DNA of 64,000 nucleotides from a virus. A program made the translations under genes and the position numbers. The stretch lies in IMG/VR virus record IMGVR_UViG_3300045988_177034; one strand, given 5' to 3'. Of this stretch, positions 15,449 through 56,300 are shown piece by piece (position 1 is the stretch's first letter; every line of letters starts with the position of its first letter). A model generated the notes under the pieces. It saw only the letters and a list, made by a program, of their open reading frames with translations, was not told the origin of the DNA and did no database searches.

Positions 15449-15724
15449 TTATCGAGCAAAGAAAGCAACGATGATTCGCATCAGAAAGGCTACAACGGCC
15501 AACTTCGTTGCAAGCCACATGAACCAATCGAGTTTGTCGATACCTTCGTCGAATACATTTGTTGCGGCAGCATCTTTTTTGTTGCTGTCGCAATCCCCGT
15601 CAACATGGTTTTTCTTGATTTTGTTGCGATTAAGCACAAACAAAGTTCGAAACAAAGCCCATGTTGCAATACAGAATCCGTATACGATTAGAAGCTCAAT
15701 ACAGAAACTGTGCAAAGACGACAT
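15449..15724 (-). CDS. small membrane protein (91 aa, 2 transmembrane helices)
   Basis: ORF track; start overlaps the stop of the upstream gene (TAATG). Confidence 0.5.
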   Translation of the reverse strand: MSSLHSFCIELLIVYGFCIATWALFRTLFVLNRNKIKKNHVDGDCDSNKKDAAATNVFDEGIDKLDWFMWLATKLAVVAFLMRIIVAFFAR

Positions 15725-34336: not shown

Positions 34337-34351
34337 CGTCCCCATCTTATT

Positions 34352-35811: not shown

Positions 35812-35878
35812 GAGTAACTTCTCCTTTTTCATGTGTGTTTGTTTGATGTGCATAAACAAGCTTCATGCACTATGCTTA

Positions 35879-35907: not shown

Positions 35908-35987
35908 ACAAAGAATAGCGCCCCACAGATTTACCTGCGGAGCGCTATATGTTATCTCTTACGCGGAGTAGAGATTATTTCAGTTGG

Positions 35988-38900
35988 TTACTGCTTCTTT
36001 TCCTCGGTTTTATCTTCGGTCTTTTCAGCAGCTTTTTCTTCGCTATCGCCCTTCTTCTTCTTAACGATGACAAATGCGCCAACGCCAATCAGAGCAACAA
36101 CAACGATAACAGGAACGATGATGTCTGCGCCAAAACCAACGCCAGTCTTGTAGTTAACTACAACAGGTGCCGGAGTGGGAGCAGGTTCATTCTTGACTAC
36201 AGGAGTCGGAGTCGGTCTGCTTTCTTCCGGAGGATTCTCCAGCTTAACGCTTGCTACCCGGACATCGCCGTAGTTGCCTGCCTTATCAACTGTACGGGTC
36301 ACAATGTAACCAGTCCAATCGGGGCTCAGCTTGAAGGTAACGTAACCGTTGTCCTTATCAATGTTTGTAACATTGACAGTCTCGAACTTGGTTTCGTCGA
36401 AGGTGTAATCGCCATCAGCACTCTTGGCAATAGCAGAACCATTGACCTTGTAATACTGAATCTTAGCGACACCGGAGTTGTATTCGCCATCAAGAGCGGA
36501 GATAGCAGGAACGGAATCCTTGACCTTTACAACAGGCACGAAGTCGGGGTCTTCGGTATCATCCTTGCCACCGTTTTCGTCGGGAGTAGCAACGACATCG
36601 TTACCGTTTTCATCACCGGTCTCGTCGCCGGTTGTGAAGAGAGCGGGCTTACCATGAGCAATACGAAGCGTAGTGGCTTCGGTCTTGTCATCGGTTGTTT
36701 CGGTCTTCTCGGACTCGCTGGGAACTTTCTCCTCGGTACCGGATTCGGTTTCATCCTTCTTGTCGGAATCTTCCTTCTTATCGGTATCGTCCTTCTTGTC
36801 GTCTTCCTTCTCAGGTGCCTTGCCGGTCTCTTCACCAGTAATGAACACATTGATGGTGCTCTCGAACTTGACGAACTTCTCGTTCAGCAAATCGGTCTTA
36901 TTGGTGGAATCAACCTTATCGGCAGCGAAAGCAGAAGCAACGACAGGAGCTTCGGTATCAACAGATGTGGTGATAGTTCCCATCTCGGTAATGGCACCTG
37001 TCTTCAGGTCAATCAGGTAATAGGTAGAAGTAACCTTCTCACTATTAGCGGAAATGACCATCTTCTCGGCCCACTCAGCATCGGTCAGGGAATCGCTGGT
37101 TCCGATTGCGTAACCCTTAGGAGCGATAACTTCAACCTTAGAGTTGAAGTACAGGCCACTCAGGTCATCAGTCGTCTTCTTGGTAACCTCAACAGGCTTA
37201 CCGGTCTTTTCGTCAGCCACAGTACCAACGATAGTTGCGGGCTCTACATCGGCAAGATGCAGACGCTGAACTTCGAGGTCTCCGGTGGTAGGCAGGTAAT
37301 TGTAGTTGTCGTAAGCGCCGCCAACATACTTGAAAGCGTCCTTCGTCAAGCCAACATTACCGAAGATACCATCGATGCTGGAAGCAACAATGAGTTCGAA
37401 GGAAGGCAGCTTAACGGTTTCAGCAGTCTCGTCGAAAGCGTAACCACTGGTCTTGATTTCGGGAATTTCCGTCTTGGTGCCATACAGCTTGACGACGGGG
37501 TTCGGGTCGAGAGTAACCGTCAGGTCTTTGCGAGCGATAACGAACTGACCATCGGCTTGGTTCTTATCGGCATCAACGACATTGATTGTTACTGCGTAAT
37601 TCTGCTCAACAGCAGCATCGTAATCAGAGGTAACGGTGTAGGTGTAAGTACCAGCGTTCTTGACATTCTCAGTCTTGAACTGGCTGTCGCTCTCCACGCC
37701 GTCATCGCCGCTTGCGATGTCAGGAGTCAGAGTCGCCTTTGCATCAGCAGTCAAGGGAGCAGTCTGTGCATTGTCGGTGGTCTTGTCATTCTCGAAAGGA
37801 GTATAAACAAGTGCCATCTTCAGGCCCAGAGAATCAGGTTTGACAGCTGCACCGTGTGTACCGTCGCCATTGGTGGCAACAGCATTTACGGTGAAGTCGG
37901 GGTTAGTGGTATCGCCATAGACGATATCCTTGGGCTCGGTGACAGTGACTTCGACCAGACGTTCGCCAATGGTATAAACGCCATTAACAATCGTAATCAG
38001 GTAATCGTCATTGTCGTAAGAACCGACCATGTCGTATGCACCGTAATTCTTGACAGATTCGGGCACGCTCTCCGCAACCAGAGAAGCAGCACCGTCAGCA
38101 GACTTCATGGAAATCTCTTCGGCAACCGCATTCTCAACATCCTTCTGAGTGATGCTGATAATAGCTTTCAGGTCATCGCCATTTACGATGGTCTTCTTAT
38201 CGGCATCGCCAGTATAGGTAAGAGTATTGCTCAGTTCAGCCATTTTATTGCCGTAGACAGAACCAACAGTGCCGATGGTCCAAGTCAGAGGACGCTGAGT
38301 GACCGTGTAAGTGCCGTTCATAGCAGTTACCAGATAATCCTGATAAGAAGCCTGACCGACGCGGTGAGCCAGACCGGAGAAGGAAGGAACAATGTCATAG
38401 CCTCCGACATGGCTTGCAGAAGTGACGAGGCACAGGTTCGTGCCTTCCAGAATATCACCATTGACCAGAGCTGCTTTGGCAGTGTCACCAGTGTATTCCA
38501 GAACGTTCACGGTACCGTAATCAGACCAATCTTCAACAGCAACATCGTCGCCATAGATAGAAGTCTGGGGTTTAGCGGTGACAGTGATGGGACGCTTGTC
38601 GATAACAAAATCAACGGGAGCGTAAACAAAGGTGTAGTTGTTTGCTGCGGCATTCTCAACATTTGCAGGAACGACCTTGCCGGTACCAGCGTGAGAAGCT
38701 ACCGTTGCGGGAGCTCCCTCAGCATCGGTAAAGTTGAAGGTCAGGTTTGCAATGCCCAGGACACCAGCATCATCGGGAGTGGTGTTGCCCTTGACGGGTT
38801 TCACAACGAATCCATCGAAAATCAGGTCGTCGCCGGAGAGAACAGGGTTCTCATCGCCGTAAATCTTGCTCTGAGCTGCCAGAGTGACATTCAGAGTAGC

Positions 38901-41900
38901 AGGAGTGATTTCGAAGGTGTTGTTTACGCGGGTGATGTTGAAGTTGACATCGTCGCCCTCGATAATCATCGGGTGCTTGCCGACATCCTCACCAGCATCG
39001 GTGCCAGCGTCAGGACGAACAACCTTCAGGTTTGCAAGGTCACCTGCATCTTCGCTTACATAGTAAGCGCCGTCGCCAGTTGCAGTCCAAGTCAGTTCGG
39101 GGTCAGCCTCGCCGTAGACCTTCTTCTGGCCTTCGTCAACAACCACGATTACATCGCGCTTATCGACATGCAGAGAACCATCAACAAAGACGATGGGGTC
39201 ATAGTTCTTTGCGCCCTTGTTTTCCAGACCGCTCATGGTGATGACATAATCGCCAGCAGCAGGACGAGCAGGAATCTCGGACAGAGAACCGTCAGCATTC
39301 TTGATGTTGTAGACAACCGAGCCAGTGAATGCGGAAGCAACGGTGTCATTGTTCTTCAGGCCAGTAACGGTGTAGCTGAACGTGGGAACGGTGCCGCCAT
39401 AAATCATGGAGTAACCGCCAGCCACGGTAAAGGTGACCTTAACGGGCTTGATGGTCAGAGTAGCAACTTCCATAGCTTCGGGCTCGGTGGTGGAAGAACC
39501 AACGTCGACGGAAGTGCCGGAGCCAGTCACGATGGTGATGGTGTAGTTACCGTACTTGTTGTACAGAGTAGAGCTGATGGGGTATTCACCGACATCCTCA
39601 CCGGCTTTGCGAGTAACAGAGCCGCTCAGAGCACCAGTAGTCAGTTCCAGCGTATTCTTCTTCAGACCATCGTTGGAAATGTTGCCGGAAATCTCGCTGT
39701 AAGAGAATGCGGGGTCTGCATCGCCGTAATCCTTCTCGTAGTTGGAGAAAGTCAGGGTGATGGGACGAGGAGTGATGGTGAGGGTAGAATCAATCACCGT
39801 CAGGTCGTAGTTGGCAGGCTGTGCGTAGATAGCTTTCAGAGCATAAGTGCCAACGCTTGCGGAAGCAGAAGTTGCACCGGAAGTCAGGGTAATGCCCTTA
39901 AGAATCTTTTCGGCTTCTGCTGCCTGAACATCAGTAGTAGTCAGCAGACCAGTGCCGCCCTTGATGTAATCCTTCACGTTCATAGAAGTGAGGGTCTCAC
40001 CATAGGTCTTTTCGGTTTCGAGCAGGTTGATAACGGCAGTACGCTTATTGATGGTGAAGCGAACATCATTGGTGAAGCTGATACGATAGTTCTTTGCCAT
40101 CGTCTGCTCATAGATGTTACCGCTGTAAATCGGATAAGTGCCAGCGTTCTCGCCTGCTTCACGGCTCAGACGAGCCTGTGCGAAGTCGGCCTTGGGTTCT
40201 GCGAAGCTGGTGGTGTTGTAGTCGAAGATGACATAAGTATCATTGACTGCAAAGCTGGGGTCAGTCTCGCCGTAAGTCTTGGACAGGCCATAGCGAGGAG
40301 TGATGGTCAGGGGCATCTGATGAACAATCAGCATGTTCTTGCCATCGGGCTCAGACAGCTTAACGCTGTTTGCAGGCTGGTTATCCAGACGGAAGGTCAG
40401 GTTGTAAGAACCTGCATCGTACAGACCAGAAGCGTTCGCAGTAGCCTCAACGGCGATACGAACAACGCCCAGAGAAACATCCTTGCCGTCCATCTTGATG
40501 TTGACGGTTTCGCCATCGTGGTAAATCTGAGTGCCATCGGAGGTGTTCACATTGACGGAAACTTCCTTGGCGATGGTATCGGGCTTCTTCTCGCCGTAGG
40601 TAGTCTGCAGAGCGTTGAAGGTGACAGAGACATCAGCCTCGGTGACTTGGAACGTGGCCTGCGGAGCAATCGTTACGATGTAGTTGGGGTTCTCATCATA
40701 GGAGATGGTAGCCTCATAGTTGCCAACAACCGTGGTGGGGTCTTCCCACTTGGTCAGGTCGATGTGGATGTTCAGCGGGCTGCCCTGCGGGTCAACCACA
40801 TTGATAGCCTGAGAACCGGTCTCGTCATACAGCGCATAGCTGGGGGTGTTCTTACCGGCAACGCCGTACTTACGGACGCTGTTGGTAGTACCCTTGATGG
40901 TGACAGGCAGTGCATTGATAGTCAGTGTACCGCTTGTACCATCGCTGTAAGTACCGGTATAAACGATGTTGTAGTTGGGGTTGGTGTAACCGGAAACAAC
41001 GATAGGATAGGTACCGACACCAGTCAGCTTACCAACGGTATTATCAACGCCATACTTGATGGTGACAGTGCCGCCAAGAGAAGCGACGGTATCATGGATG
41101 CCGATTTCATCGTTGCTTGCAAAGTTCTTGTATTCCAGTGCGCCGGTAATGTCGGCATCGCTGGGATTTTCAGAACCATACAGACGCTCACGGTTCGGAA
41201 CGGTGATAGTCAGAGTACGCTTGGTGATAGTGTACTTATCGGGAGCATTGAAGGTGATGTCGTAGTTCTTGGCGATTTCAGCAGTCTGGAACTGTGCATC
41301 GCTGTAAGCGTAAGAACCAACGGTCTCGCCGACCTCACGGGTCACAACGCAGCCAGCAAAGTCGGAACCAACACGGCCGCCCTTGCCATTGACGGGGTCA
41401 AGAGTAAAGGCAACGCCGCCCTTGGCATCACTGTCGCCGTAAACCTTCGTTTGACCACCCATCACATTGATGGCGATAGGACGCTTGGTGACGGTCAGCT
41501 TGCTGTTGACAAAACGAACCAGATAGTTGTCGTAACGGTCGTAGTTCTTGCCATCGGCATTGGGGTCCCAGTCAGAAGACCAACGCTCCTGAGAAGCACC
41601 CTGCACAGATGCGCTGACGGTGTATTCGCCAACATTGGCAGTTGTAGGAGTGCCGCTGTTGCCAGCCGCATCCACCATGGTAAAGCCAAGCTTATCCTCG
41701 GTCAAACCGATGCTTGCCTGTGTATCGTTCAGCTTGAAACCTTCGATGGATTTAATCTTGCCGGAACGAGCAGCGCCATACATTGCGGACAGGTCATCGA
41801 GAGTGACAGTCAGCATTGCAGGATGGATGATGTACTTGCTGTTGATGACCTTAACGTCATAGTAAGCAGTGCATGCAGGGGGAACTTCGACAGTCATCGG

Positions 41901-43931
41901 ATATTCGCCAACATTCTTATTGTCGATATCCTGACGCTGTGTTGTCAGAACCATGCTGACCAGCTTGTTCACACCGTCATCAGCGGTGATGTCGGAACCG
42001 GCGACAATACGCTTATCGGAGGCCACTGCCTGAGCAGCACCGTTATAAGCAACAGCGTCGAAGGTAATGGTGGAAGACTTGCCCTTTTCAGCCTCACCAT
42101 AGATGGCATCAATCTGGTCGTTGGTGATGGTTACGTTACGCTTGGTAATTTCAAACGTTGCGGTAGCAAGGTTGATGTTATAACCATTGATAGGCGCATT
42201 CGTCTGGATATTGCCGATTGTAACAGTGTAGCCACCGGGAGCAGAGGTAATGCTGGGCAGAACAACGGTGGGTTCACCGCTCAGACCAAGCATCTCTTTC
42301 AGAGCAACTGCGTTGGACTTGTGCTCGTTGTTGGTCTTATACTCGAAATTCGTCTTATCGGTATCAGACCAGCCGGTAATCACGAAGTCAACCTGAGGAT
42401 TCTGCTGACCATACTGACGAGTGGCTTTGCTGCCGGTCGTCTGTACGCCATCATTGCCCTTGAAGACAAATACAGGAGTCAGGGTCAGAGTCTTTTCAGA
42501 AACGACAACATACACATCGCCGGTATTGGGCTGAATGTCGATGTTGTAGTTCGTGTTGCTCTTCGCGGAGGAACCTAAGATGATTTTGTAAGAACCGGTA
42601 GTGTCCTTATCAAAGTTCTCTGTGGTCAGAACATCCGCAGGAAGCAGGTCGCCGTCAACCAGACCACCATTGGTGTCCATGACTGTGTAGTTAATCTGGC
42701 TGATGGTATTGCCCTTCGTAACATAAGTAGTATGAGGGACAATGTAAATCTGACGCTTGTTGATAGTCACGCCCGTGTCATTGCGGATATTCTTAGAAGA
42801 ATCCAAGTTGGAACCGTCAATGATGGTGTAATTCAGACCATTCACAGTAACGCTTGTGGCACCTGTATCAACATAAGTCGGATAAGTACCGGCATTGCAA
42901 TGAATGTCTGTGGGATTCTGGCCGTCGCCGTCAGCCGGAGCATACATGATGAAGCTCAGACCGTCGATAGCTGCCTGAATATCCTTTTCGACTTCCTGAG
43001 AAGTACGGGAATCAGCAGTGCTGTATTCGATGGTCAGACCCTTAGACTTGAAGGAGTCACCGTAGGTGTAGGTAACAGTCTGAGGCAGAATGCGAATAAC
43101 ATTCTCCTGACCGCTAATCTTGGTATACTGAATACCAGTGCCTGCGGCAATCTGCTTACCAGTCTCAGCAGCGGTAATTGCCTGATAGTCCCCGATGACA
43201 GTCGTAGAACCGCCGCCATCAAACGCGCTGGCACCGCTGTTGTCTACGGGGTTTTCCTGACGGTCGCAAACCTGCAGATACAGGTCAGACATATCAAGGT
43301 ATGCATTCATGACGGGCTCGGCGACCTGCTCATCCTCGCTCAGAGAATAATACATGTCCTCAATGGGTTCCCAGTCATAAACTGCATCCAGTTCCTCAGT
43401 GCGACGCGTGACCATCGCATCAAGAACCGCATTTTCCTTGTCAGCCTGCCATGCCTTGCTTGCAAGACCGAAGTTGTTTGCAGCAGTCAGAATTTCATCT
43501 TTACGGCTTACAAGGGCGTTAGCCGCATCGATAAATGCCTGTGCTGCTTCACTGATGCTGCCAGTGGTAGAAGCTTCGCTGGAAGTGCTGGTGCTTGCAC
43601 CAGTATCAGAGGCAGCACTGTTTGCGTAGGCAGTGGTCGTTTCAGACCCCGCCTGACTTGTAGCCTCAGAAGAAACATCGCTCGTCACAGAAGTGTCGCT
43701 GGACGCGGAACTTGCTGTGTCGGTAACATCGCTTTTCGGCGCGGGAGTAGTAGCGGAAGAGTCGGAGTTTGTTGTCGTAGTGCTGAGTGCATCAGTTTCC
43801 TTCGGAGCTTCTTCACTCTGCGTGATTCCACTCGCGCTCTCTACTGCATAAGCAGTGACAGGAGCAAACTGAGACAGGCACATTGCTACGGCGACAATCG
43901 CACTCAAAAACCGCTTACGAGGTTTCTGCAT
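35988..43931 (-). CDS. giant cell-surface adhesin 1 (2647 aa): signal peptide, many MBG (YGD/E-type) repeats, Pro/Thr linker, C-terminal transmembrane anchor
   Basis: AGGAGGG ribosome-binding site 8 nt upstream of ATG 43931; signal peptide ending AYA; dozens of K(V/T)YG(D/E)xDP...T motifs; C-terminal VVNYKTGVGFG plus hydrophobic helix plus KKKK tail. Confidence 0.9.
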   Translation of the reverse strand: MQKPRKRFLSAIVAVAMCLSQFAPVTAYAVESASGITQSEEAPKETDALSTTTTNSDSSATTPAPKSDVTDTASSASSDTSVTSDVSSEATSQAGSETTTAYANSAASDTGASTSTSSEASTTGSISEAAQAFIDAANALVSRKDEILTAANNFGLASKAWQADKENAVLDAMVTRRTEELDAVYDWEPIEDMYYSLSEDEQVAEPVMNAYLDMSDLYLQVCDRQENPVDNSGASAFDGGGSTTVIGDYQAITAAETGKQIAAGTGIQYTKISGQENVIRILPQTVTYTYGDSFKSKGLTIEYSTADSRTSQEVEKDIQAAIDGLSFIMYAPADGDGQNPTDIHCNAGTYPTYVDTGATSVTVNGLNYTIIDGSNLDSSKNIRNDTGVTINKRQIYIVPHTTYVTKGNTISQINYTVMDTNGGLVDGDLLPADVLTTENFDKDTTGSYKIILGSSAKSNTNYNIDIQPNTGDVYVVVSEKTLTLTPVFVFKGNDGVQTTGSKATRQYGQQNPQVDFVITGWSDTDKTNFEYKTNNEHKSNAVALKEMLGLSGEPTVVLPSITSAPGGYTVTIGNIQTNAPINGYNINLATATFEITKRNVTITNDQIDAIYGEAEKGKSSTITFDAVAYNGAAQAVASDKRIVAGSDITADDGVNKLVSMVLTTQRQDIDNKNVGEYPMTVEVPPACTAYYDVKVINSKYIIHPAMLTVTLDDLSAMYGAARSGKIKSIEGFKLNDTQASIGLTEDKLGFTMVDAAGNSGTPTTANVGEYTVSASVQGASQERWSSDWDPNADGKNYDRYDNYLVRFVNSKLTVTKRPIAINVMGGQTKVYGDSDAKGGVAFTLDPVNGKGGRVGSDFAGCVVTREVGETVGSYAYSDAQFQTAEIAKNYDITFNAPDKYTITKRTLTITVPNRERLYGSENPSDADITGALEYKNFASNDEIGIHDTVASLGGTVTIKYGVDNTVGKLTGVGTYPIVVSGYTNPNYNIVYTGTYSDGTSGTLTINALPVTIKGTTNSVRKYGVAGKNTPSYALYDETGSQAINVVDPQGSPLNIHIDLTKWEDPTTVVGNYEATISYDENPNYIVTIAPQATFQVTEADVSVTFNALQTTYGEKKPDTIAKEVSVNVNTSDGTQIYHDGETVNIKMDGKDVSLGVVRIAVEATANASGLYDAGSYNLTFRLDNQPANSVKLSEPDGKNMLIVHQMPLTITPRYGLSKTYGETDPSFAVNDTYVIFDYNTTSFAEPKADFAQARLSREAGENAGTYPIYSGNIYEQTMAKNYRISFTNDVRFTINKRTAVINLLETEKTYGETLTSMNVKDYIKGGTGLLTTTDVQAAEAEKILKGITLTSGATSASASVGTYALKAIYAQPANYDLTVIDSTLTITPRPITLTFSNYEKDYGDADPAFSYSEISGNISNDGLKKNTLELTTGALSGSVTRKAGEDVGEYPISSTLYNKYGNYTITIVTGSGTSVDVGSSTTEPEAMEVATLTIKPVKVTFTVAGGYSMIYGGTVPTFSYTVTGLKNNDTVASAFTGSVVYNIKNADGSLSEIPARPAAGDYVITMSGLENKGAKNYDPIVFVDGSLHVDKRDVIVVVDEGQKKVYGEADPELTWTATGDGAYYVSEDAGDLANLKVVRPDAGTDAGEDVGKHPMIIEGDDVNFNITRVNNTFEITPATLNVTLAAQSKIYGDENPVLSGDDLIFDGFVVKPVKGNTTPDDAGVLGIANLTFNFTDAEGAPATVASHAGTGKVVPANVENAAANNYTFVYAPVDFVIDKRPITVTAKPQTSIYGDDVAVEDWSDYGTVNVLEYTGDTAKAALVNGDILEGTNLCLVTSASHVGGYDIVPSFSGLAHRVGQASYQDYLVTAMNGTYTVTQRPLTWTIGTVGSVYGNKMAELSNTLTYTGDADKKTIVNGDDLKAIISITQKDVENAVAEEISMKSADGAASLVAESVPESVKNYGAYDMVGSYDNDDYLITIVNGVYTIGERLVEVTVTEPKDIVYGDTTNPDFTVNAVATNGDGTHGAAVKPDSLGLKMALVYTPFENDKTTDNAQTAPLTADAKATLTPDIASGDDGVESDSQFKTENVKNAGTYTYTVTSDYDAAVEQNYAVTINVVDADKNQADGQFVIARKDLTVTLDPNPVVKLYGTKTEIPEIKTSGYAFDETAETVKLPSFELIVASSIDGIFGNVGLTKDAFKYVGGAYDNYNYLPTTGDLEVQRLHLADVEPATIVGTVADEKTGKPVEVTKKTTDDLSGLYFNSKVEVIAPKGYAIGTSDSLTDAEWAEKMVISANSEKVTSTYYLIDLKTGAITEMGTITTSVDTEAPVVASAFAADKVDSTNKTDLLNEKFVKFESTINVFITGEETGKAPEKEDDKKDDTDKKEDSDKKDETESGTEEKVPSESEKTETTDDKTEATTLRIAHGKPALFTTGDETGDENGNDVVATPDENGGKDDTEDPDFVPVVKVKDSVPAISALDGEYNSGVAKIQYYKVNGSAIAKSADGDYTFDETKFETVNVTNIDKDNGYVTFKLSPDWTGYIVTRTVDKAGNYGDVRVASVKLENPPEESRPTPTPVVKNEPAPTPAPVVVNYKTGVGFGADIIVPVIVVVALIGVGAFVIVKKKKGDSEEKAAEKTEDKTEEKKQ

Positions 43932-44075
43932 GTTAGTTGCCCTCCTAATAATGTGAGTATTCTGTGGTTTTACCACAGCCGGATTTATATACACCCTTAC
44001 CTACTCCCTAGTGTGCAGCCTCGATTGTAGATAAGAAAGTATATCAAAACACAAGCAATCAAATTGCATATTTAC

Positions 44076-44104
44076 AATATGCCACAAAAAGACAGAAAAG
44101 TCAA
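44076..44104 (-). promoter_or_regulatory. weak family-2-like promoter: TTGACT - 17 nt ending TGTGG - CATATT
   Basis: conserved -35 and spacer, degenerate -10. Confidence 0.3.
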
Positions 44105-44248
44105 TCAAAAAATTTGGCACAAAAATGCCACCCATGAACGCATTCTCATATTTCGTATGGACATGGATGGTTGAAACATTAACGCAAAACCTGCTTGACT
44201 ATGGCTATTATTTGTTCTGAGAAATTTGATGCTGTATTTATATCTATT

Positions 44249-44276
44249 ATATTACTTACTTTGCAGCAACGGTCAA
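44249..44276 (-). promoter_or_regulatory. family-1 conserved promoter: TTGACC - 16 nt (GTTGCTGCAAAGTAAG) - TAATAT
   Basis: minus-strand read ttaTTGACCgttgctgcaaagtaagTAATATaatagatATAAATA; upstream of giant adhesin 1. Confidence 0.55.
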
Positions 44277-44308
44277 TAATTATTCTGAAAATTAGAAGCT
44301 TTTTACGC

Positions 44309-44346
44309 AAAAAAAAAGAGCGGCGGCTCTTTCGAACCACCGCTCT
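44309..44346 (-). terminator. strong intrinsic terminator after giant gene 2 (AGAGCGGTGG-ttcgaa-AGAGCCGCCGCTCT plus T9)
   Basis: long GC-rich stem and 9 T residues on the minus strand, directly after the stop at 44360. Confidence 0.75.
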
Positions 44347-44359
44347 ATTGTTTTACCGC

Positions 44360-47300
44360 TTATTCAGCGGAATCATCCTTATGGTTATCTTTGTTGTCGT
44401 TTTCGTCCTTCTTGCGCTTGTGGTTTACTACCACCAGAGCAGCGACGCCAATGCCAACCATTGCTACCAGACCAACAATGCTCTGTGCAAATCCGATACC
44501 CGTCTTCTTGTTGCTCGTGAAGATAGAGAAGAGGGAGAAGGGTTTGCCGTCTACCTTGAAGATATCGAGCCAGCCAATCGGCGGGGTCTTGGGCTTCTCA
44601 GTAGGAACAGGGGTCGGAGTAGGCTTCGGGTTGTCAGGAGTCGGAGTCGGTTTAGGCTCGTCAGGCGTTGTGGGAGTAGAGGGTTTCACAACAGGGACTT
44701 TCACCTCGTTGGAAGGTTTCTCTACATCTTCATCAATCGGCTTAGACGGGTCCTTACCATGACCCGGATTTTCGGGGTCTTCGGGATTCTGACCCGGAGC
44801 CTTAGCGACAGCCACGTTAATGACATCGTGTCCGGCATCCGCGTCAACGGCAACATAAGAATAGGTCAGAGTGAAGGATTCGCCAACGGGGATACGAGCA
44901 ATAGTGAACGTTGTCGTTGCGCTATTGTAAGTATATCCATCACCGTTCTGGGCTTCAATATGGCTTGCGCCGTCATTGTTGTCCTTTACGGTTACATTGA
45001 CAAGGTCTACTTCACCGGTATTGGTTACTACCACACGATAATTGATGGTTTCACCGACATTGACTTTCGTCTTATCAGCACTCTTCACAATCGTGAGGCT
45101 CTTTTCGAGCGGGATGTCAGTTTCCGTGCCGGAACCCGGAACTTCCACATCGACCTTGTTGGACGGAATATCCGTATCAGGGTCAATCGGTTTCGTTGGG
45201 TCTTTACCCTGTCCGGGATTCTCCGGGTCTTCAGGGTTCGTACCGGGAACATGAATCGTCGCTACGTTTTCAAGAATGTGCGTGGTCACATCGGCGATAC
45301 CGACAGTATAAGCGTAGTGGACAACCACATCGCCGCCAGCAGGAATCGTGTCGATGGTGAATACACCATTCTCATAGTGATAACCAGCGCCATCCACTGC
45401 GAAAATGCTTCCGGAGAAGTTATTCTCATCAGTCAGAGCAGCATTCTGAATATCGTGGTCTTTGCCATTGTGTACCGTTACGGTATAGGTGACAGTCTCA
45501 CCCGGCTTTGCGACAGTCTTGTTTGCAGACTTCCAGATGGTGACAACGCCATCATCAGGCTTCTTCACATCGACTGTATTGGACGGGATATTATACTGCT
45601 CGCCATCGTGCGTGTACTTAATGGTTGCGGTATTTTCCATAACGCTCTCATCGGTCGTCTCTACCGTATAGGTATAAACGATATCAAGAGCCTCACCGGC
45701 ATCCAGATAACCGATAGTCCAAGTGCCGTCTCCGTTATAGGTATAGCGGTTAGAACTCTCAGCCGTAACATCACCCGCAAAGTTGTTATGGTCTGCGACA
45801 GTGATATCGTTTACGGTTTCATCTGTCGTGTTCTTCACCGTAATGGTGTAGGTCACAACATCCGTTACCTTAGCAATATACTTATCGGCATCCTTTTCAA
45901 CATCGATAGGCGGTGTCGGGTCTTTCACAACAGCAGCGTTCAGAACCTTAGGAGCATCAGCGGTAACTACCACATAGGTGAAGTTAAGCGTTACGCTCTC
46001 GCCAGCCTTTACAGTGCTGATGGTATAGGAGTTGTCGCCGTTATCCGCAACGCCATCCATGGACACAAAGTTGAGCGTTCCGTTGCCATCGAAGAAGTCT
46101 TCGACCACAACATTTTCCGCATCAGCCTTGCCTTTATTGGCGACAGTAACCGTATAGTTGAGCGTATCGCCAACCTTGGCCTCTGCCTTATCAACGGACT
46201 TGGTGATTTCGATTACAGGAATCTCTGTTTCGGTTTCAGAGCCGGGAACTTCCACATCAACCTTGTTGGACGGAATTTCCGTATCGGGGTCAATGGGTTT
46301 CTCGGGGTCTTTGCCGTGACCCGGATTATTCGGGTCTTCGGGATTCGTGCCGGGAACATGGATTGTTGCAATGTTTTCGAGAATCTGCGTGGGCACATCA
46401 GCAATTTCAACCGTATAGGTGTAGTGGATAACCACATCACCGCCTGCGGGAATCTTATTGATTGTGAATTCGCCGTTCTCGAAGGTGTAATCTGCACCGT
46501 CAACACTTACGATTTCGCCAGCAAAGTTGTTGGTGTCTGTCAGACGAGCGTTTTCGATGTCGTGATTCTTTTCGTTATGAACCGTGACGGTATAGGTTAC
46601 AACCTCGCCCGGCTCAGCCTTTGTCTTATCTGCAGCCTTGCGGATGGTGACAACACCATCATCGGGCTTCTCGACATCGACGGGATTGGAGGGGATATTG
46701 TAATCTGTGCCATCCTTGCTGTAAGTCACATTTGCAATGTTTTCGATGACGGTGGCATCCTCAGCCTGCATTGTATAGGTGTAGGTGATATGGATGGTCT
46801 CGCCAGCGGCAATAGTCGGAATAGTCCATGTCTTATTGCCATTGTAAGTGTACTTGTCAGCGTTTTCGGCCTTGATTTCGCCCTTGAAGTTGTTAGTATC
46901 GGTGACAGTTACATTGTCAACAGGCTCAGAAGTGGTGTTCTTCACGGAAATCGTGTAGATTACAACCTCATCTACCTTTGCAATGTGCTTGTCGGCTTCC
47001 TTCTCAACGTCAACAGGCGGTGTCGGGTCTTTGATTACTGCGGCGTTCAGTACGAGAGGTTCGTCTCCTTCAACTACAACATAGCTGAAACGAAGCTTTA
47101 CGCTCTCCCCTGCTTTGACCGTAGAAATAGTGTAGGTGTTGTCTCCGTTATCTGTCACGCCATCCATGGCCTTGAAGTTCAGCGTTCCGTTTCCGTCAAA
47201 GAAATCCTTAATCAGGATATTCTCAGCATCCGCGTTACCGCCGTTCTTGACAGTGACGGTGTAGTTTAGCGTATCACCAATCTTGGCAGTAGGCTTATCT

Positions 47301-50300
47301 ACAGACTTGGTAATAGAGATTTCCGGAATCTCGGTCTCAACTTCGGAACCGGGGACTTCCACTTCGACCTTATTGGACGGAATGTCCGTATCGGGGTCTT
47401 CCGGATTCGTGCCGGGCACATGTGCCGTGGCAACATTTTCCAGAATGTGAGTGGGTACATCTGCAATCTGCACCGTGTAGGTGTAGGTCAGAACAGCGTC
47501 TGCACCAGCAGCAACCTTATCGATTACAAAGTGTCCGTCAACGAACTTGTAGCCGACACCATTCGTGCCGGTAATCGTTCCAGCAAAGTTGTTGGAATCG
47601 CTTACGACCACATTGGTGATGTCATGCGCCTTGCCGTTGTGAATCGTAACCGTGTAGGTCACGACCTCACCGGGTTCTGCAATCTTCTTGTCACCGCTCT
47701 TGACAATCGTAACTTCGCCATCCTTCGGGACAACGACTTCAACGGGGTCTGCCTTGATGACATACTCGCCGTCATCGGTCGTGTAGCGAACATCAGCTTC
47801 GTTGACCAGCGTAGAGGGGTCGGTAGTCTTCACCGTATAGGTGTAGAGAATATCGATGCTCTCACCAGCCTTGATGCTGGGGATAGTCCAAGTATGGTTG
47901 CCATTGTAGGTGTACTTGGCGTTGTCTTTAGAGGTGATTGCGCCTGTAAAGTTGTTGGTGTCGCTGACCAGCAGGTCGGTAACGGTCTTATCAGTCGTGT
48001 TTTTCACCGTGATGGTATAGTTGACGACTTCATCGACCATCGCTACATGCTTGTCTGCGGTCTTCTCGATGTCAACGGGAGGCGTCGGGTCTTTCACAAC
48101 AGCAGCGTTCAGGACCATCGGCGCATCTCCGGCAACGACCGTGTAAGTGAAGCGGAGCGTAATGCTCTGACCCTTCTCCACATTCGCAACCGTGTAGGTG
48201 TAATCACCGTTATCCGTCACACCGTCCATCGGAACGAAGTTCAGGACACCGTTACCGTCAAAGAAATCCTTGACGACAGCGTTCTTGACTGCCTGTCCGC
48301 CAACATTCGTCAGCGTAATCGTGTAGTTCAGCGTATCGCCAACCTTGGCTTCCGTTTTGTCTACACTCTTAACGATTTCGAGCTTGCCTTCCGGCACATC
48401 AACGTGCGTGCCGTCACCGGGAACCTCAACATCGACCTTGTTGGAAGGAATCTCCTCGTCAGGGTCGCCGGGGGTCTTGCCGGGAACGTGAGCCGTTGCA
48501 ATGTTTTCAAGAATCTTGGTCGGAACATCGGCAATCTGGACTGTGTAGGTATAACGGACCACTGCGTCACCGCCAGCAGGAATCTTGTCAATGACAAATT
48601 CGCCGTTGGTGAACTTGTAGCCAGCGCCATCTACGCCTTCAATCTTGCCCGCGAAGTTGTTCGCGTCAGTCAGACGGACATTCTTGATGTCGTAATCCTT
48701 ACCGTTATGAATCGTAACCGTATAGGTAACGACCTCGTTCGGTTCAGCCTTGGTCTTGTCGGCAGTTTTAAAGATGGTAACGACACCATCGTTAGGCTTT
48801 TCGACTTCGACGGGGTTGGACGGAATATCGTAGTCAGTACCGTTGTGGCTATAACGCACATCGGCAGTGTTTTCAATAACAGTTTCATCGCTTGCCTGCA
48901 TCGTATAGGTGTAGGTAATGTCGATGGACTTGCCGGATTCGAGCGTTGCGATGGTCCAAGTCTTATCACCGTTGTAGGTGTAGCCCTTGCCATCCTTGGC
49001 TTCAATTTCGCCCTTGAAGTTGTTCATATCGCTTACCAGCAGATTCGTCAAGGTGTCCTTGGAATTGTTCTTCACCGTAATGGTGTAGGTAACAATCTCA
49101 TTAACCTTAGCGATATGCTTGTCTGCGCTCTTCACAATATCCGTGGGCGGTTCGGGAGTTGTGATGACTGCCGCGTTCAAAACCTCAGGTGCGTCTCCGT
49201 CAACTACCACATAGGTGAAGTTGAGCGTTACGCTTTCGCCAGCCTTGACACTTGCAATCGTGTAAGTGTCATCACCGTTATCGGTGACGCCATCCATAGC
49301 CACGAAGTTCAGTGTGCCCTTGCCGTCGAAGAAGTCCTTGACTGTGACATTCTCAGCATCGCCCTTGCCGTTGTTCTTGACAGTAATCGTGTAGTTCAGA
49401 GTATCACCGACAACGGCTTCATTCTTATCCACACTCTTTGTCAGAACAAGGTCAGGAATCTTGGTTTCAGTCTCGGAACCCGGAACCTCAACATCGACAG
49501 GATTCGAAGGAATCTTCTCATCGTTATCGATAGGCTTGTTCGGGTCTTTACCGTGACCGGGGTTGTTCGGGTCTTCGGGATTCGTACCGGGAACATCAGC
49601 CGTAGCGATGTTTTCCAGAATCTGAGTAGGCACATCACCAATTTCAACCGTGTAGGTGTAGGTCAGAGTGACCGAAGCGCCTGCGGCAATCTCAGCAATA
49701 TGGAACTCACCGTTCTCGAAGGTGTAGTCCGCGCCGTCAACACCAGTGATTTCACCAGCGAAGTTGTTGGCATCAGTTACTACAACATCGTGAACATCGA
49801 AGCCCTTGTTGTTGGTAACGGTGACATTGTAGGTGACGACCTCACCCGGCTTAGCCATCTTCTTGTCCGCTTCCTTGTGGATGGAGACAGTGCCCTTATC
49901 GGGTACGACCACATCGACAGTCGGCGTATCAAGTTTCACGGTATCGCCGTTCTCGGAATACGTCACATCAGCCTTGTTCTCGAGGAGCTTTTCATCATTG
50001 CTCTGTACCGTGTAGGTATAGGTAATGTCGATGGTCTCCCCTGCTCCGATTTCCGGAATCGTCCAAGTATTATCGCCGTTATAGGTGTACTTGTCTGTAT
50101 TGGCGGCATTGATGCTGCCAACAAAGTTATTGGTATCCTTGACAGTGACATTCGTCTTTGCCTTGGTATCGGGGTTATACACGCTGATGGTGTAAGTCAC
50201 GATTTCATCGACAAATGCGAACTTCTTGTCAGCCGTCTTGGTGGGTTCGAGCGGCGGGTCAACGGGCGGTGTCGTGACGACAGCGGCGTTCAGGACCTCA

Positions 50301-53300
50301 GGCTCATCGCCTTCCACGATAACATAGGTGAAGCGGAGCTCCATGAATGTACCGGCAGGCAGTTTGTTGATAGTGTAGGTGCCATCACCGTTCACTACAA
50401 CACCGACAGTCGGGATGTAGTTGAGCTTGCCGTGTCCATCGAAGAAGTCTTCGACCAGAATATTTTTCAGTTCGCCATCGCCAACATTAGACACCTTAAC
50501 GGTGTAATGCAGCATATCGCCAACAGAAGCACTCTTCTTGTCTACGAATTTCTCGACTTTCAACTTGCCCTCGGGCGGGTTGACAGGAACAGGTACATCA
50601 CTGCCGGGAACCTTGACGGTGACCTCGTTAGAAGGCTTCGTCTTTTCATTCTCAGGAGTCTGGTCTTCGTCAGCGAACCAGTAATGCAGCGTAGCCACAT
50701 TCTTCAATTCGTTGTAAGTATCCTGACCCTTACCGGCATCGGTGTTCAGCACAATGTAATCATATTCTACCGTGACAGTCTTGCCAGCCGGAATAGTGCC
50801 GACCTTGATGACTGCGGAACCGGCAGATGCAGATTCCAGAGTGCCGTTCTTGACATTCGTGATAACGCCGTTGAAGTTGTTCTTGTCGTGCAGCGCTGCA
50901 TTCACATAGTCAACAGTGTCATTGTTGTGCATGACGACGGTGTAATGCACCGTATCGCCGATGTTTGCAATGGCCTTGTCTGCCTGTTTTACAACGGTGG
51001 GTCCGACATGTTCCGGCGTGGGAGTTTCGGGGATGACAGGGATATCAACCTCATTGGAAGGAATCTTTACCTTGCCGGAATCCGTCACATATGTCATTTC
51101 GGCGTTATTGACAAGCATGGTATTGGGAGCATCTTCATTCATTACCGTGTAGGTGTAGACAATGTCTACGCTCTCACCAGCGCCGATAGAAGAAATATTC
51201 CAGACCTTGTCGCCAATATAGCTTACAACATCAGTGTTTTCGGCAGGCGTGATAACACCCGTGAAGTTGTTTGTATCCTTGACCTCAACATTCGTCTTGG
51301 TCTCGTTAGTCGTATTGGTAACGGTAATGGTGTAAGTCACCACCTCGCCAACCACTACGGTCTGTTTATCTGCCTTCTTCTCGATTTCGGGAACTTCCGG
51401 AATCTCAACAGCAGCATTGTTTACGGTGCCCTTGTCGCCTTCCTGTACGGTATAGGTGACAGGAATCTCAACGACCTCACCAGCCGCAATTTCTGCGATG
51501 GTGAAGGAATGAGTCGCTGCGTCATAGGTGTACTTGTCGGAACTTGCAGCATTGATTTCACCAATGCCGTCATTGAAGTCGCGCACAACTACATTCTGAG
51601 CAGTCATTGCACCGTTGTTCGTAACGGTAATGGTGTAGTGAATGGTATCGCCAATCATCACACTGGATTCAAGAGAAGTCTTCACAACGCGAATATCGCG
51701 GTCAGGCACTTCGCCTACATGGACAGTCTCAGTATCGGGGTCGCTCGTAACAGTCTTGTTGTCGGGGTTCTTGCCCTCAGCAACAGCCGTATTCACGATG
51801 TTACCGTTATCGAGGTTCATGTCCTCTGCCACAGCAGTGTAGATATAAGTGATTTCAACGGATTCGCCTGCGTTCAGCTCAGGAATCATCCACTTGCCGT
51901 TTCCGTCATACATCAAATCGCCGGTGTACTCGACAGTGCCATTGCCGTTGGATGTATCGGTAACGATAACATTCGTCAGCTTGGTATTGCCGCTGTTCTT
52001 AACGGTCAGAGTATAGGTTACGGTCGTGTCATTGCCGTTCATATCAACGAAGCCCTTGTCAGCGTTCTTTACGATGGTCAGTTCATCACGGAGCACATCA
52101 ACCTCAACAGGCTTAGAAGGCTCTTCGATGTCCTTGTCACCCGGAATCTCAGTATCGGGATTCTTGGGAGCGTGAGCAGTAGCTACGTTGATAATCGTTT
52201 CGGGGTCACCGTTCTGCACAATATACAGGTAATTCAGCGTAACGGAATCGCCGACATTCAGAGCAGGAATGGTGAACAGTCTGGTTTCGGGGTTATAGGT
52301 ATATCCGTCGCCGGTAGAGACGATAAACATACCCAGAGCATTGGTGTCATCGGAGACGGTAACATTCGTCATATCGACAGTGCCGTCGTTCGTGACAGTG
52401 ACCTGATACTTGACGACTTCGCCGGGATAAGCGTGGTCGCGGTCAGCAGACTTGACAATCGTCAGGTGCTTGTAGTACAGCGGCACGATTACTTCGTTGG
52501 AATCGACAGGTTTCTCAGGAATAGTCGGGTCTTCGCGAGCAGGAATCGTTGCGGTAGCAATGTTATCCAGCTTGCCGTTTGCGAGGTCATCTGCAACAAC
52601 CGTGTACTTATAGGTAATGGTTACGGACTTACCAACGCCAAGGCTGGTGATTGTCCATGTTCCATCATCGTTGACACGATAGCCGAAGTGGAGCTTCGTG
52701 TTCTCGACAGGCTCGCCCATGAAGTTGTTCGTATCCTTTACGACAACATTTTCAAGCTTCGTGTTGCCCGTATTGGTGACTTTCAGCGTGTAAGTGACGA
52801 CATCACCTACGCCAGCCTCAGTCTTATCAGCACTCTTTTCGATGGTCAGATTCTGACGGATGATTTCCACATCAACATCAGGAGTCTCAACCAACCAATC
52901 CTTGTTAGGCTCGGTATAGTTCGGAGTGGTGCTGCCATCAGGGTTCTCCGTATAGCTCTCGACTACCTTCATATCGGTAATCTTGGCGTTGTTTTCGAGG
53001 ATATCGTTGTTGTTGGTGCCGTGGTCGGTCGGGTCTACCGTGTAGGTATAGGTGAACGTTACGGCATTGTTATGGGTTTCATCGCGCAGATGGGAAATCT
53101 CTGCGATAACGAACTCGCCCTTCTCTGCATCATAGGTCACACCGTTTGCCTGAGACAGGACAGGAACACCAACGAAGTTGTTGGTATCTTTAACGATGAC
53201 GTTGTGCAGGTCATGACTGGTCGCATTCGTAACAGTAATCGTGTAGCGAATCACATCGTAATCCGTAGCGCGTTCACGGTCAGCAGATTTCTCGATAGAG

Positions 53301-56300
53301 ACAATTTCCTTATCGCGAACGGTCAGAGTACCATCCACATACTTGATGATGTAGTTGGCATTGCTGCCGCTGCCATCTTCTGTGTTGATGATAACTGCAT
53401 CGCTGGGAACGTTCTTGCTGGAACCCACTTCGGTCTGAGAACCGGTTACGGTCACAGAATCCATCTTATCGTGAATGCCAAGCAGGTCGTTATCTACGAG
53501 TTCTGGAGCGTAGGTATAGCCGGGTTCCGTCAACGGAGTGCCGTCATATACCTTTTCTGCGGAGTTTGCAGTAATGGTTACCTCACGCGGGTCAATGAAG
53601 AAATGTCCGGGAGTTACTGTGCCAATCTCAATGTTATCTACCTCAGTATAGGTAGGAACAATGGAATAGCCGGGGTTCTCAGTACGAACATTCTCACCCG
53701 GAACACGAGCTGCATCCAGATTCAGGGCACGGTCGATATAATCGCGCAGGTCCTTATCCGGAGTGTAAGGCTCATCTTTCTCGTTCGTGAGCGTATAGGA
53801 AACATTGAACTTATCGGGGTCGTTATCACCGTAGGTCTTGCGGTCGTCTTCTGCCTTGATGTTAATAATCAAGGGTTTAACGGTCAGCTTACCATCGATG
53901 TAAACGAAATCGTAGTTCGGGTTATGGAAAGTAGAATCCTTGGCAGATACAGGATATTCACCAACAGGGCTCCACTTCTCTGCATCAGTCTTGGTCTTGA
54001 GCGCATCTTTACCACCGATATCATCGATGGTGTCACCGCGCTTATAGCCGGTAATGGTTACGTTGGGTGTCGGGTTATCTTCGCCGAAATACTTTTCGTC
54101 GTCAATAACTGTAACAACGATGGTTGCAGGAACAATGGTCAGAGTTCCGGGAGTGGTAATGATTTCGTAGTTGCCGGACGGGTCAGTGCCATCAATGGTG
54201 ATGGGATACTTGCCTACCTGCTCACCGTCATCAGTATCAGCGCCGGGACGCTTTGTGGTGATATCGAAGAAGTCTTCGTCACCGGGATTGACCAGTTCTT
54301 CGGGGTCAGTAATCGTCCAAGTCAGCGGGTCGGGGTCTTTCTCTCCGTAAACCTTCTGCTGGTCATCTGCCTTCACATGGATAGGTTTCTTACCAATCGT
54401 CAGGTCACCGCCAACATAGATAAACTTGTAATTGCTGTTGTCAGCAACCAACTGCTGTCTATCGTAGTTGATGGGATAATTACCAACTTTCGTCTTATTC
54501 GTTACGGGATTGCCAGCGTTATCGTTGCAGTACATTGTAGCAGTGCCGGAAACCTTGGATTCATCGTCCTTGATACCGGTACCTGTTTCGTCCTTAACGT
54601 CACGACCGACAAAACCTGTGATGGAATAAGTGAATTCGGGAATCTCATCGCCGTAGGTGGTCTTGTATCCGCCATCGACCGTAACAGTGAGCGTTGCGGG
54701 GATGATTTTCAGAGAACCATCGTATACGGTAACGGCATAGTTCTTGTTGTTTGTATCGTACTTTGCGGAAATGAGGTAATCACCATCATAGAGGGTAGTT
54801 CCCCACTTATTGAGAGAATCTGCTGCAGTGACATCGCCGCGCACAACATTCTCACCCTTGGTGCGGTACAACTCAACATTCAGCGGGCTGTTTTCGGGGT
54901 CAATCAGGCCAATCACATTGCCAGCATTGTCTTCGTAATGGAAGGTAAATGCCGGGTCAGCAGTGCCGTAGGTCTTGACCTTATGGTCAATGCGAACAAT
55001 CAGTTCCTTCGGGTTGACAGTGATATCGCCATTGACATAGCGGATAACATAGTTCTTCTCGAAGTTTGTGTTGCTCTTGACTTCGAAAGTGGAGCCGATA
55101 TGCTCTTCACCGTCTTCCAGAACAACGCAATCCGGGTTCACCGCATCCTCGTTGTTGTTGCCAGCAGTTACGATGTACTTGCCAGCGTCAGACAGGTCGA
55201 AGCACAGAGTAGCGAAGCCAAGTTCACCGTTCAGAACGGTTTCCTTCGTGTCATCACGCTTGAAGCCGGTAATATCGGCATCAAATGCGGGATTCTCTTC
55301 GCCATAGGTCTTGGAATAGCCACCCTTTACGGTAACAACCAGCTCAGCCGGAGTAATCGTAAAGTTGCCATTCTCCATGGTAATAACGTAGTTGGTGATG
55401 CCATCCTTGCTGACAGGGCTGATATCGTTGGCGTTGATGGCGTAAGCCTTGCCGAACGAATGCTCGCCAGTCCAGACATCCTCACCGGGTTCACGAGTCA
55501 CGCCAGTACCTTCGAGGTCGCCGGGCTGGACAGGCACATCCGCGCCTTCCTTCTCGGTGAGAACGGGACCGTTTGCGTACTCAATGTAGTAGTTGCCATC
55601 TTCGCCACGGACACCGTCATGGAGCGTGTACTTCAATTCGGGGTCAGCGTCGCCGTAAACCTTGGTGTTATCCTCAGCAATAACGGAAACGGGGCGAGGA
55701 ATGATAGTCAGGTTGCCAGCGGTAATCGTGATGTCATCATCATCATAGATGGTGCTGTGGACACCGGACAGGCTAATGCAATCCTTGTAAGTGCCGCTGG
55801 AACTGGTCTGTGTATCCAGATGGGTAAATGTAAAGGAATTGGTGTTGATACCGGCTTCCTCTGCCGTGATTTCAACAGCCTCGCCGTTTTCTACCTTAAA
55901 CACATGATAGGTGTAATCGGTAGAACCATCGTAGAAGCGGTTGACACGGTCGCCGTAATAGCGAACCTTATCATCCACGGTAATCATCAGACCCTGACGC
56001 TTGACAATGAGGTCGTTTGCGTAACGGTACTCAAAGTCGTAGTTCGGGTTATCCAGCTCAAGCTGTTTCTGGTCGTTTGCTGCGAGGTTTCCAATCTGAC
56101 GGTCCTGCGGCGTGGAGTAGACGGGATAAGAACCGACTTCTTCACCCTCTGCACGAACCAGATTGAAGACGATGGGAACCTTATCGGGGTTCACAACAAC
56201 GCTTGCATCCGTGATACGGCTGCCTGCGCCGAGCTTCTGCTGACCATTTACGGAATTATGGGTAATCATATCGGTCAGGGTGAAATCCTGAACCTTATCA

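Follow-up and report, generated by a model that had tools for sequence, protein, structure and literature searches.

How are the two very large surface proteins encoded on the minus strand of this locus held on the cell, and which enzyme would attach them? The locus lies in the IMG/VR virus record IMGVR_UViG_3300045988_177034, of which one stretch of 64,000 nucleotides was analysed (the window; all positions refer to it unless another contig is named). The window is part of a "Hodor" conjugative megaplasmid, which was recognised through a full-text search by way of the preprint that names these plasmids and describes their 'surface-associated gene module' (Yuan et al., bioRxiv 2026; PMC12934698). 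As this preprint already makes our central claim, namely that each giant closes with a motif, a hydrophobic helix and a basic tail and is probably anchored by a sortase, that claim is already known. What is added here is the consensus [N/Q]-x-x-T-G-[V/I]-G-[F/L] with its QAPTG and NKQTG variants, the exclusivity of the signal and the assignment of the plasmid's sortase to class B at the level of the fold.

The Hodor surface module and the window agree in the element, in the two proteins and in the gene order. According to the main text of the preprint the giants comprise 7309–7704 and about 2642 amino acids (aa) and fit the paradigm of a signal peptide plus a C-terminal sorting signal; this signal is described as motif, helix and K/R tail, with the letters of the motif left to a supplementary figure, and both proteins are read as putative sortase-anchored proteins (PMC12934698). 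The same text lists a gene set of hyp, SecY, SecG, SecE, 'trigger factor' and a class B sortase, has the foldase and sortase B genes co-transcribed, credits every Hodor plasmid with a class A sortase and one group with a class C sortase, and words the acting enzyme as 'class A and/or B' (PMC12934698). The genes of the window recur on human-gut metagenome contigs of 150–390 kb in the order given there, and a megablast comparison of 25 kb of the window with the PLSDB plasmids and GenBank phages gave no match. The G+C content of the backbone is about 44% in the clade of the window and about 47% in a sister clade; the preprint gives 44.6% for its group G2 and 47.1% for G1 (PMC12934698). This resemblance, the sole ground for the assignment, suggests that the window belongs to a G2 plasmid.

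The C-termini of the two giant proteins

The two longest minus-strand open reading frames (ORFs) of the window run from 35988 to 43994 and from 44360 to beyond 64000. Their features are as follows.

35988..43931, minus strand: giant surface protein 1; counted from the ATG at 43931 it has about 2647 aa, opening with a signal peptide and carrying MBG_2 repeats
36156..36233, minus strand: Pro/Thr-rich linker of protein 1, PPEESRPTPTPVVKNEPAPTPAPVVV (checked codon by codon)
36132..36155, minus strand: candidate sorting motif NYKTGVGF of protein 1, from translation; predicted sortase cut between T and G
36123..36131, minus strand: spacer GAD of protein 1, from translation
36063..36122, minus strand: C-terminal hydrophobic helix of protein 1, IIVPVIVVVALIGVGAFVIV, 20 aa, from translation and hydropathy
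35991..36062, minus strand: predicted cytoplasmic tail of protein 1, KKKKGDSEEKAAEKTEDKTEEKKQ, 24 aa, a KKKK cluster followed by 20 residues of mixed charge
35988-35990, minus strand: stop codon of protein 1, from minus-strand translation
44360..64000, minus strand: giant surface protein 2, represented in the window by its C-terminal 6546 codons, the rest of the gene lying beyond the end; DUF11/DUF7507/CARDB repeats
44489..44512, minus strand: candidate sorting motif NKKTGIGF of protein 2, from translation
44480..44488, minus strand: spacer AQS of protein 2, from translation
44426..44479, minus strand: C-terminal hydrophobic helix of protein 2, IVGLVAMVGIGVAALVVV, 18 aa, from translation and hydropathy
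44363..44425, minus strand: predicted cytoplasmic tail of protein 2, NHKRKKDENDNKDNHKDDSAE, 21 aa, beginning NHKRKK
44360-44362, minus strand: stop codon of protein 2, from minus-strand translation

The likeliest start of protein 1 is the ATG at 43931, not the GTG at 43994; from this ATG it begins with a plain Sec-type signal peptide, MQKPRKRFLSAIVAVAMCLSQFAPVTAYA, judged by eye to be cleaved ahead of VE, and its counterpart in the preprint is the protein of about 2642 aa. For protein 2 a full-length orthologue of 7323 aa (P0056) carries the N-terminal signal peptide MQKGKTWQRVASAVLAVMMTMSTFSSTIAYA, followed by AE (again by eye). Signal peptides and helices were called from sequence and hydropathy; within the last 80 residues of protein 1 the best 17-residue window averages 3.0. 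The Pro/Thr linker of protein 1 is likely to be the wall-spanning segment.

An initial annotation, made from the letters of the window, had stated that both giants share a motif, a transmembrane helix and a basic tail, laid out like a cell-wall sorting signal. Minus-strand translation returns exactly the C-termini quoted there, with the motif of protein 2 extending 12 bases beyond position 44500, where that annotation had ended the region, and the parts of such a layout are all present: signal peptide, Pro/Thr linker, a motif built around T-G, hydrophobic helix and K/R cluster. The tails are, as it had also said, unusually long (24 aa in protein 1 and 21 aa in protein 2), since in both giants the K/R cluster is followed by another 15–20 mostly acidic residues.

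Since protein 1 is made up of MBG_2 repeats and protein 2 of DUF11/DUF7507/CARDB repeats, which are different families, duplication of one protein end does not by itself account for the motif that they share. At the DNA level the two motifs differ in codon usage and their flanks are unrelated. When the segments ahead of the helices were shuffled with their composition preserved, at least six identities out of eight in register with the helix arose in 1 of 100,000 shuffles, and at least six of eight anywhere in these segments in 11 of 3,000. Read in all six frames, the window contains the core T-G-[VI]-G-[FL] only at the ends of the giants, once in each, and no other ORF of the window was found to combine a C-terminal helix with the motif.

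Conservation and consensus of the motif

Orthologues were collected by protein searches, from IMG/VR and by a metagenome scan, with the addition of P0060, and represent five lineages and about 60 loci. A separate retrieval of IMG/VR loci with the signal alignment, in which matches are confirmed against the first sequence, yielded orthologues of protein 1 only and gave no information on further substrates. The signal-spanning peptides are PVVVNYKTGVGFGA, FTSNKKTGIGFAQS, GGNKQTGIGFVQ and AAQAPTGVGLSA, and the lineages read as follows, numbered from the predicted cut (P4 to P1 ahead of it, P1′ to P4′ after it).

Protein 1, window clade: upstream PVVV; P4–P1′ NYKTG; P2′–P4′ VGF; spacer GAD
Protein 1, sister clade: upstream IVAA; P4–P1′ QAPTG; P2′–P4′ VGL; spacer SAN
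Protein 2, window clade: upstream IFTS; P4–P1′ NKKTG; P2′–P4′ IGF; spacer AQS
Protein 2, sister clade: upstream IITG; P4–P1′ NKKTG; P2′–P4′ IGF; spacer VQG
Protein 2, P0060 lineage: upstream IFGG; P4–P1′ NKQTG; P2′–P4′ IGF; spacer VQG

T-G-[VI]-G-[FL] is constant in every orthologue seen, P4 is always N or Q, and T-G invariably sits six residues ahead of the helix; spacer, helix and tail vary between lineages, as do P3, P2 and the residues upstream of the motif. Within a clade the motif is invariant and changes are found in the spacer (GAD/GAE), in the helix (V/I and A/V exchanges) and in the tail. Because the core is constant while its surroundings vary, the alignment suggests that selection acts on the motif itself. 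The initial annotation had written this motif as N-x-K-T-G-(I/V)-G-F and had named its loss from orthologous adhesins that keep helix and tail as an outcome that would speak against a signal. Its T-G-[VI]-G core holds in all orthologues seen and no such loss was encountered; N-x-K does not define the motif, as QAPTGVGL and NKQTGIGF replace it in other lineages, and from the sequences at hand the consensus reads [N/Q]-x-x-T-G-[V/I]-G-[F/L]. In the sister clade QAPTGVGL of protein 1 and NKKTGIGF of protein 2 are found beside a sortase 75% identical to that of the window. A single enzyme serving both would therefore have to tolerate very different residues at P3 and P2.

The sortase of the sec gene row

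The enzyme that comes into question first is encoded at the end of a row of secretion genes.

11361..12332, minus strand: class B type sortase, 323 aa (sequence profile, matches to solved structures, family alignment, AlphaFold2 model)

It begins with an acidic N-terminal extension of ~65 aa and a membrane helix (model residues 68–95), from which a linker of low confidence leads to the catalytic domain. The acidic extension (residues 1–65; window 12138-12332, minus strand) is a low-confidence part of the model, predicted to be cytoplasmic; it is highly variable between the clades and absent from the most distant relatives of the sortase (P0036–P0039). The triad His208 (in GHSNGN), Cys302 (in LSTC) and Arg311 (in TRF) is invariant in 17 family members and aligns with that of SrtB in solved structures, among which SrtB of C. 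perfringens, L. monocytogenes, C. difficile and S. aureus gave the best sequence matches. A Foldseek search with the model returned class B enzymes at all of ranks 1–19 (E 1e-15 to 2.5e-11), the first class A sortase following at 5.7e-7. The model places helices 259–262 and 268–281 between strands 243–256 and 296–302, that is, a helical insertion ahead of the Cys-bearing strand; the predicted local confidence (pLDDT) of the catalytic domain is mostly 83–95 and dips to about 63–75 in three 10-residue blocks. By sequence and predicted fold the enzyme is thus a divergent lineage of class B type with an intact catalytic triad, not an SrtB equivalog. A class-B-like sortase in the sec gene row had been proposed from the letters of the window, and its gene indeed lies directly downstream of those for SecY, a SecG-like protein, SecE and a foldase. 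The weak sortase matches P0040–P0042 are unrelated class B-like enzymes.

Distribution of the signal and of the sortase lineage

A search for other proteins with such ends had been proposed together with the first description of the motif. A profile made from an alignment of 51 positions (A3) was compared by HMMER with 1.84 billion representative proteins (E <=0.001) and matched eight of them. Seven belong to the two giants, as orthologues or as fragments; the remaining one, P0061, is a free-standing ORF of 44 aa that ends in NPATGVDF, a helix and KKRKK in a chromosomal context. The signal type is thus essentially private to the two giants.

ORFs of the P0061 type, MEVINIINPATGVDFSNEIIIAGIALVVLIGVGILSVVLKKRKK, lie at 296-430 of contig L032 and at 200-334 of L033, with a stop codon upstream and next to a YjeF/carbohydrate-kinase gene. 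Both contigs look chromosomal, and the ORF resembles a sorting signal without a passenger protein, scoring 19.9 bits with LPXTG_anchor (cut-off 15.9) and 21.8 bits with Rumino_NPXTG (cut-off 23.5). That P0061 is a fragment of an independent NPxTG protein is ruled out, as the ORF stands free at 44 aa, and it tells little on substrates.

The sortase has a similarly narrow distribution. Almost all of its 42 homologues come from metagenome-derived collections, several on contigs of 100–380 kb, and in 185,579 species genomes a scan for the family turned up four matches, all weak: at about 25% identity in three cases, and at 44% over a 66-residue fragment in the other. One of these genome matches (Acetatifactor) adjoins a protein that ends in SPKTG, a helix and RREK. 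A tblastn search of PLSDB and the GenBank phages found class B sortases of 28–34% identity only; the nearest annotated plasmid relatives carry the label 'class B sortase', and the neighbourhoods of the relatives on Butyrivibrio and Lactococcus plasmids held nothing informative on the signal. More distant relatives at 68%, 51% and 38% identity are found on other very large contigs (L024, 345 kb; L022, 128 kb; L026, 127 kb), and within 10 kb of these three no adhesin with a comparable end was found. Genes near such distant relatives include DNA polymerase III alpha, a topoisomerase, a sigma-70 factor, a RepB-type primase or a sec gene row. As L026 stems from a termite-gut metagenome, relatives of these elements may exist outside the human gut.

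The sec gene row and the neighbouring genes

Upstream of the sortase gene the row comprises the following genes.

12344..13507, minus strand: FKBP/trigger-factor-like foldase with a lipoprotein signal (IALTAC ahead of S)
13566..13817, minus strand: SecE, 83 aa (Pfam SecE match on the orthologous gene in L001–L003)
13814..14068, minus strand: small two-helix membrane protein, 84 aa, SecG according to the preprint and with no family match in this analysis
14084..15424, minus strand: SecY, 446 aa (TIGR00967, 330 bits, above cut-off)
15724..16401, minus strand: zinc-ribbon (zf_Tbcl) protein at the head of the row, 'hyp' of the preprint

The stop codon of the foldase gene lies 11 nt upstream of the sortase start. 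The N-terminus of the foldase, MKKNGKVILAVISAACIALTAC followed by SKD, is a lipoprotein signal with a lipobox. The protein scores 170.9 bits with TIGR00115 (cut-off 180.2), and as this match begins at profile position 108 the ribosome-binding N-domain is missing. Because of its lipoprotein signal the protein would be a lipid-anchored foldase of the FKBP type, placed outside the membrane in a PrsA-like role, and not a ribosome-bound cytoplasmic trigger factor.

In the sister clade (L018–L021) only about 5.5 kb separate the end of protein 1 from SecY. The corresponding interval of the window, of ~20 kb (15424-35988), contains genes for a ParM/Alp-like actin (24209-25318), a Dam methylase (29037-29555) and a flotillin (31224-32759). 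Three genes downstream of protein 1, at 33124-34467 on the minus strand, a protein of 447 aa ends in a helix and an acidic tail (IMPIMAVIFGISAGACGFVGFSKDSRKEEDSEDSEEA) without the T-G motif, and has no Pfam match. Pfam matches are likewise absent from a 498-aa multi-pass membrane protein and a 415-aa lipoprotein with a Gln/Ala-rich tail upstream of the giant genes (L084, 6843-9807), and from an acidic lipoprotein of 219 aa downstream of them (L084, 40528-41187; window 35152-35859, minus strand). Long ORFs of up to 4154 codons also lie antisense to the giants on the plus strand (35949-42578, 44195-47269, 47420-59884 and 60620-63928), and are taken to be a by-product of repetitive, stop-poor coding sequence.

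Discussion

We consider it probable that the C-terminal element of the giants is a sortase signal at all. About half of our confidence goes to the fuller reading, which we favour, that both giants carry a sortase-type, non-LPXTG signal that is cut between T and G, and that they are attached to the wall most likely by the plasmid's class B sortase. The anatomy and conservation of the two ends, their restriction to two proteins and the class and intact triad of the sortase, from which this reading starts, are observed; the preprint came to its own sortase-anchored reading independently. In the mechanism that we suggest, the signal peptide would have the precursor exported by a Sec channel, which may be the SecYEG of the plasmid itself, and the C-terminal helix with the K/R cluster would hold it in the membrane. 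The membrane-anchored sortase would then cut between T and G and transfer the protein to a peptidoglycan precursor, presumably the acceptor, so that the adhesin would end up covalently bound to the wall of the Gram-positive (Bacillota) cell.

That the class B enzyme is the sortase which acts here we infer, since according to the preprint all such plasmids also encode one of class A, and our judgement on it is evenly balanced. The class B enzyme is favoured because in both clades its gene comes immediately after those for secretion and the foldase, because signal and enzyme have the same narrow distribution, and because the motif resembles class B signals, which carry N or Q/E at P4 and do not depend on L-P. 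Such signals are NPQTN for S. aureus and EVPTG for Spy0129 of S. pyogenes (PMC3019223); in C. difficile the class B enzyme takes (S/P)PxTG and cuts it after the T (PMC4155245). The initial annotation had already taken this enzyme as the one belonging to the signal; class and location agree with that, but going by the main text of the preprint it is not the element's only sortase (PMC12934698).

Several points weigh against this reading. The sortase itself scores 78.1 bits with the SrtB model TIGR03064, under the cut-off of 153.75. With LPXTG_anchor (TIGR01167, cut-off 15.9) protein 1 reaches 13.6, 15.7 or 16.1 bits depending on trimming, aligned over the helix only, and protein 2 13.3–13.4 bits; with Rumino_NPXTG (NF033846, cut-off 23.5) the signals score 8.1–11.8 bits, again over the helix only, and the NCBIfam models for sortase B signals match neither signal at E up to 10. 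One enzyme would need to accept NYK, NKK and QAP at P4–P2, where Pro at P3 is lacking, and C. difficile SrtB did not cut NVQTG in vitro (PMC4155245), so that an N-x-Q-T-G shape is no guarantee of class B cleavage. The motifs start 50–55 residues from the C-terminus, compared with a window of 17–45 residues for the sortase substrates in the same study (PMC4155245), and the tails of 21–24 aa are largely acidic past the K/R cluster. In the clade of the window the adhesin genes lie about 20 kb from the sec and sortase genes. The class A sortase that the plasmid reportedly also encodes was not found among the ORFs of the window, in the 10 kb upstream of the giant gene or in the 10 kb beyond the window start, and therefore lies elsewhere on the roughly 350 kb plasmid. 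Finally, cleavage and wall linkage are deduced from sequence.

The model scores also bear on how the signal should be named. The pentapeptide had been called class-B-like at the outset, and N at P4, K/Q at P2 and T at P1 agree with this. Compared with the pattern NP(Q/K)(T/S)(N/G/S), however, Pro is always missing at P3, where Y, K or A is found; the other positions are N or Q at P4, K/Q or P at P2 and T at P1. The sortase B signal models gave no match, and neither did the NCBIfam model for the QVPTGV class. Models for CTERM signals of the exosortase, archaeosortase or rhombosortase type gave only sub-threshold, helix-driven hits (Loki-CTERM, PTPA-CTERM), and no such enzyme was present among the window ORFs scanned. 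As membership in the SrtB equivalog, NPxTN/NPxTG and Ruminococcus NPXTG families thus fails in each case, the pair of signal and sortase is best described as a divergent variant outside these curated families.

A first alternative keeps the sorting signal and assigns it to another enzyme, either the class A sortase of the plasmid or a housekeeping sortase of the host, with the class B sortase serving another substrate or step. We regard this as unlikely, even if the distance of ~20 kb between the adhesin and sortase B genes in the window clade fits it and the tail of protein 1 just reaches the generic LPXTG_anchor cut-off. Class A sortases typically need L-P at P4–P3, and NYKTG, NKKTG, NKQTG and QAPTG all lack it, whereas N or Q/E at P4 characterises class B signals. 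The presence of a class A enzyme in every Hodor plasmid and the wording 'class A and/or B' leave room for this alternative (PMC12934698); yet it is the class B gene that directly follows the sec and foldase genes in both clades, with the adhesins of the sister clade only ~5.5 kb off, and signal and class B lineage are confined to the same group of large elements.

According to a second alternative the giants are uncut type I membrane proteins, in which T-G-[VI]-G-[FL] would be a juxtamembrane hinge or a contact site, for example for the plasmid's Sec components or for a partner of the charged tail in the cytoplasm. The tails are about as conserved as the adjacent domains and unusually long, and the helix of protein 1 is identical between the clades at 17 of 20 positions, more than the N-x-K part of the motif; the protein encoded at 33124-34467, in the same gene row, has a helix and an acidic tail without the motif, and the curated signal models fall short. 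Nevertheless we think this rather improbable, and less so only than chance, because it leaves unexplained why two unrelated giants carry the same 8-mer in the same register, why T-G is invariant amid changing neighbours, and why a Pro/Thr linker precedes the motif and a dedicated sortase stands beside the secretion genes. That the likeness is a functionless product of chance, or of recent copying of one C-terminal cassette, is rejected almost outright: although both segments are compositionally biased and the unregistered match turned up in 11 of the 3,000 shuffles, the match in register, the differing motif codons with their unrelated flanks, and the presence of the motif in every orthologue across diverged clades speak against it.

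We therefore return to the class B sortase and compare the pair with known systems. Among class B sortases with N-initiated signals, NPKTG is used in B. anthracis and NAKTN in L. monocytogenes. The N-x-[KQ]-T-G/N signals of the Isd systems are the closest in motif shape, the S. aureus SrtB/IsdC signal being NPQTN (PMC3019223): as here, a dedicated accessory enzyme serves one or two substrates, with N at P4, K/Q at P2 and T at P1. In contrast to these signals, the giants lack Pro at P3 and continue from G at P1′ into a conserved [VI]-G-[FL], and the substrates are adhesins of 2,600–7,300 aa instead of small haem-binding proteins. For Spy0129 of S. pyogenes (EVPTG/QVPTG) the likeness lies with the sister clade, where QAPTGV is shaped like QVPTGV, the residue at P4 being an amide or acid and that at P3 small and hydrophobic, ahead of Pro at P2 and T-G-V; its structure (3psq) is also among the top structural matches of the window sortase model. 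Spy0129 is, however, a pilus enzyme that polymerises pilins onto lysine, and nothing here suggests polymerisation. SrtB of C. difficile and the Ruminococcus NPXTG type (NF033846) share the class B type of gut Clostridia and an x-x-K/Q-T-G signal cut between T and G (PMC4155245), but differ in having Pro at P3, and the NF033846 score of the giants stays under its cut-off.

The organisation of the module invites one further comparison. Accessory Sec (SecA2/SecY2) systems export giant serine-rich LPXTG adhesins. They resemble the Hodor module in that a private translocon with its helpers is encoded alongside very large wall-anchored adhesins. Unlike theirs, the SecY of the window is of the housekeeping type (330 bits, against 147 bits and below cut-off with the SecY2 model), neither SecA2 nor glycosyltransferases were seen, and the module is plasmid-borne with its own sortase. 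Tentatively, and with clearly less confidence than we have in the class B reading itself, we propose that signal and enzyme form a private code: the class B sortase would read mainly T-G-[V/I]-G-[F/L], residues around and after the cut, and need only an amide at P4. By its own SecYEG, lipoprotein foldase and sortase a conjugative megaplasmid of broad host range might then secrete, fold and anchor its giants in any Bacillota host, regardless of the specificity of the host sortases.

If the plasmid's sortase does cut the signal, a Hodor plasmid would bring along all that is needed to display adhesins of 2,600 and 7,300 residues on any Gram-positive cell that it enters. Such equipment would bear on the spread and persistence of these megaplasmids in the human gut, and the pair of sortase and signal, with its unusual specificity weighted towards the primed side, would be of some interest for sortase-based protein ligation.

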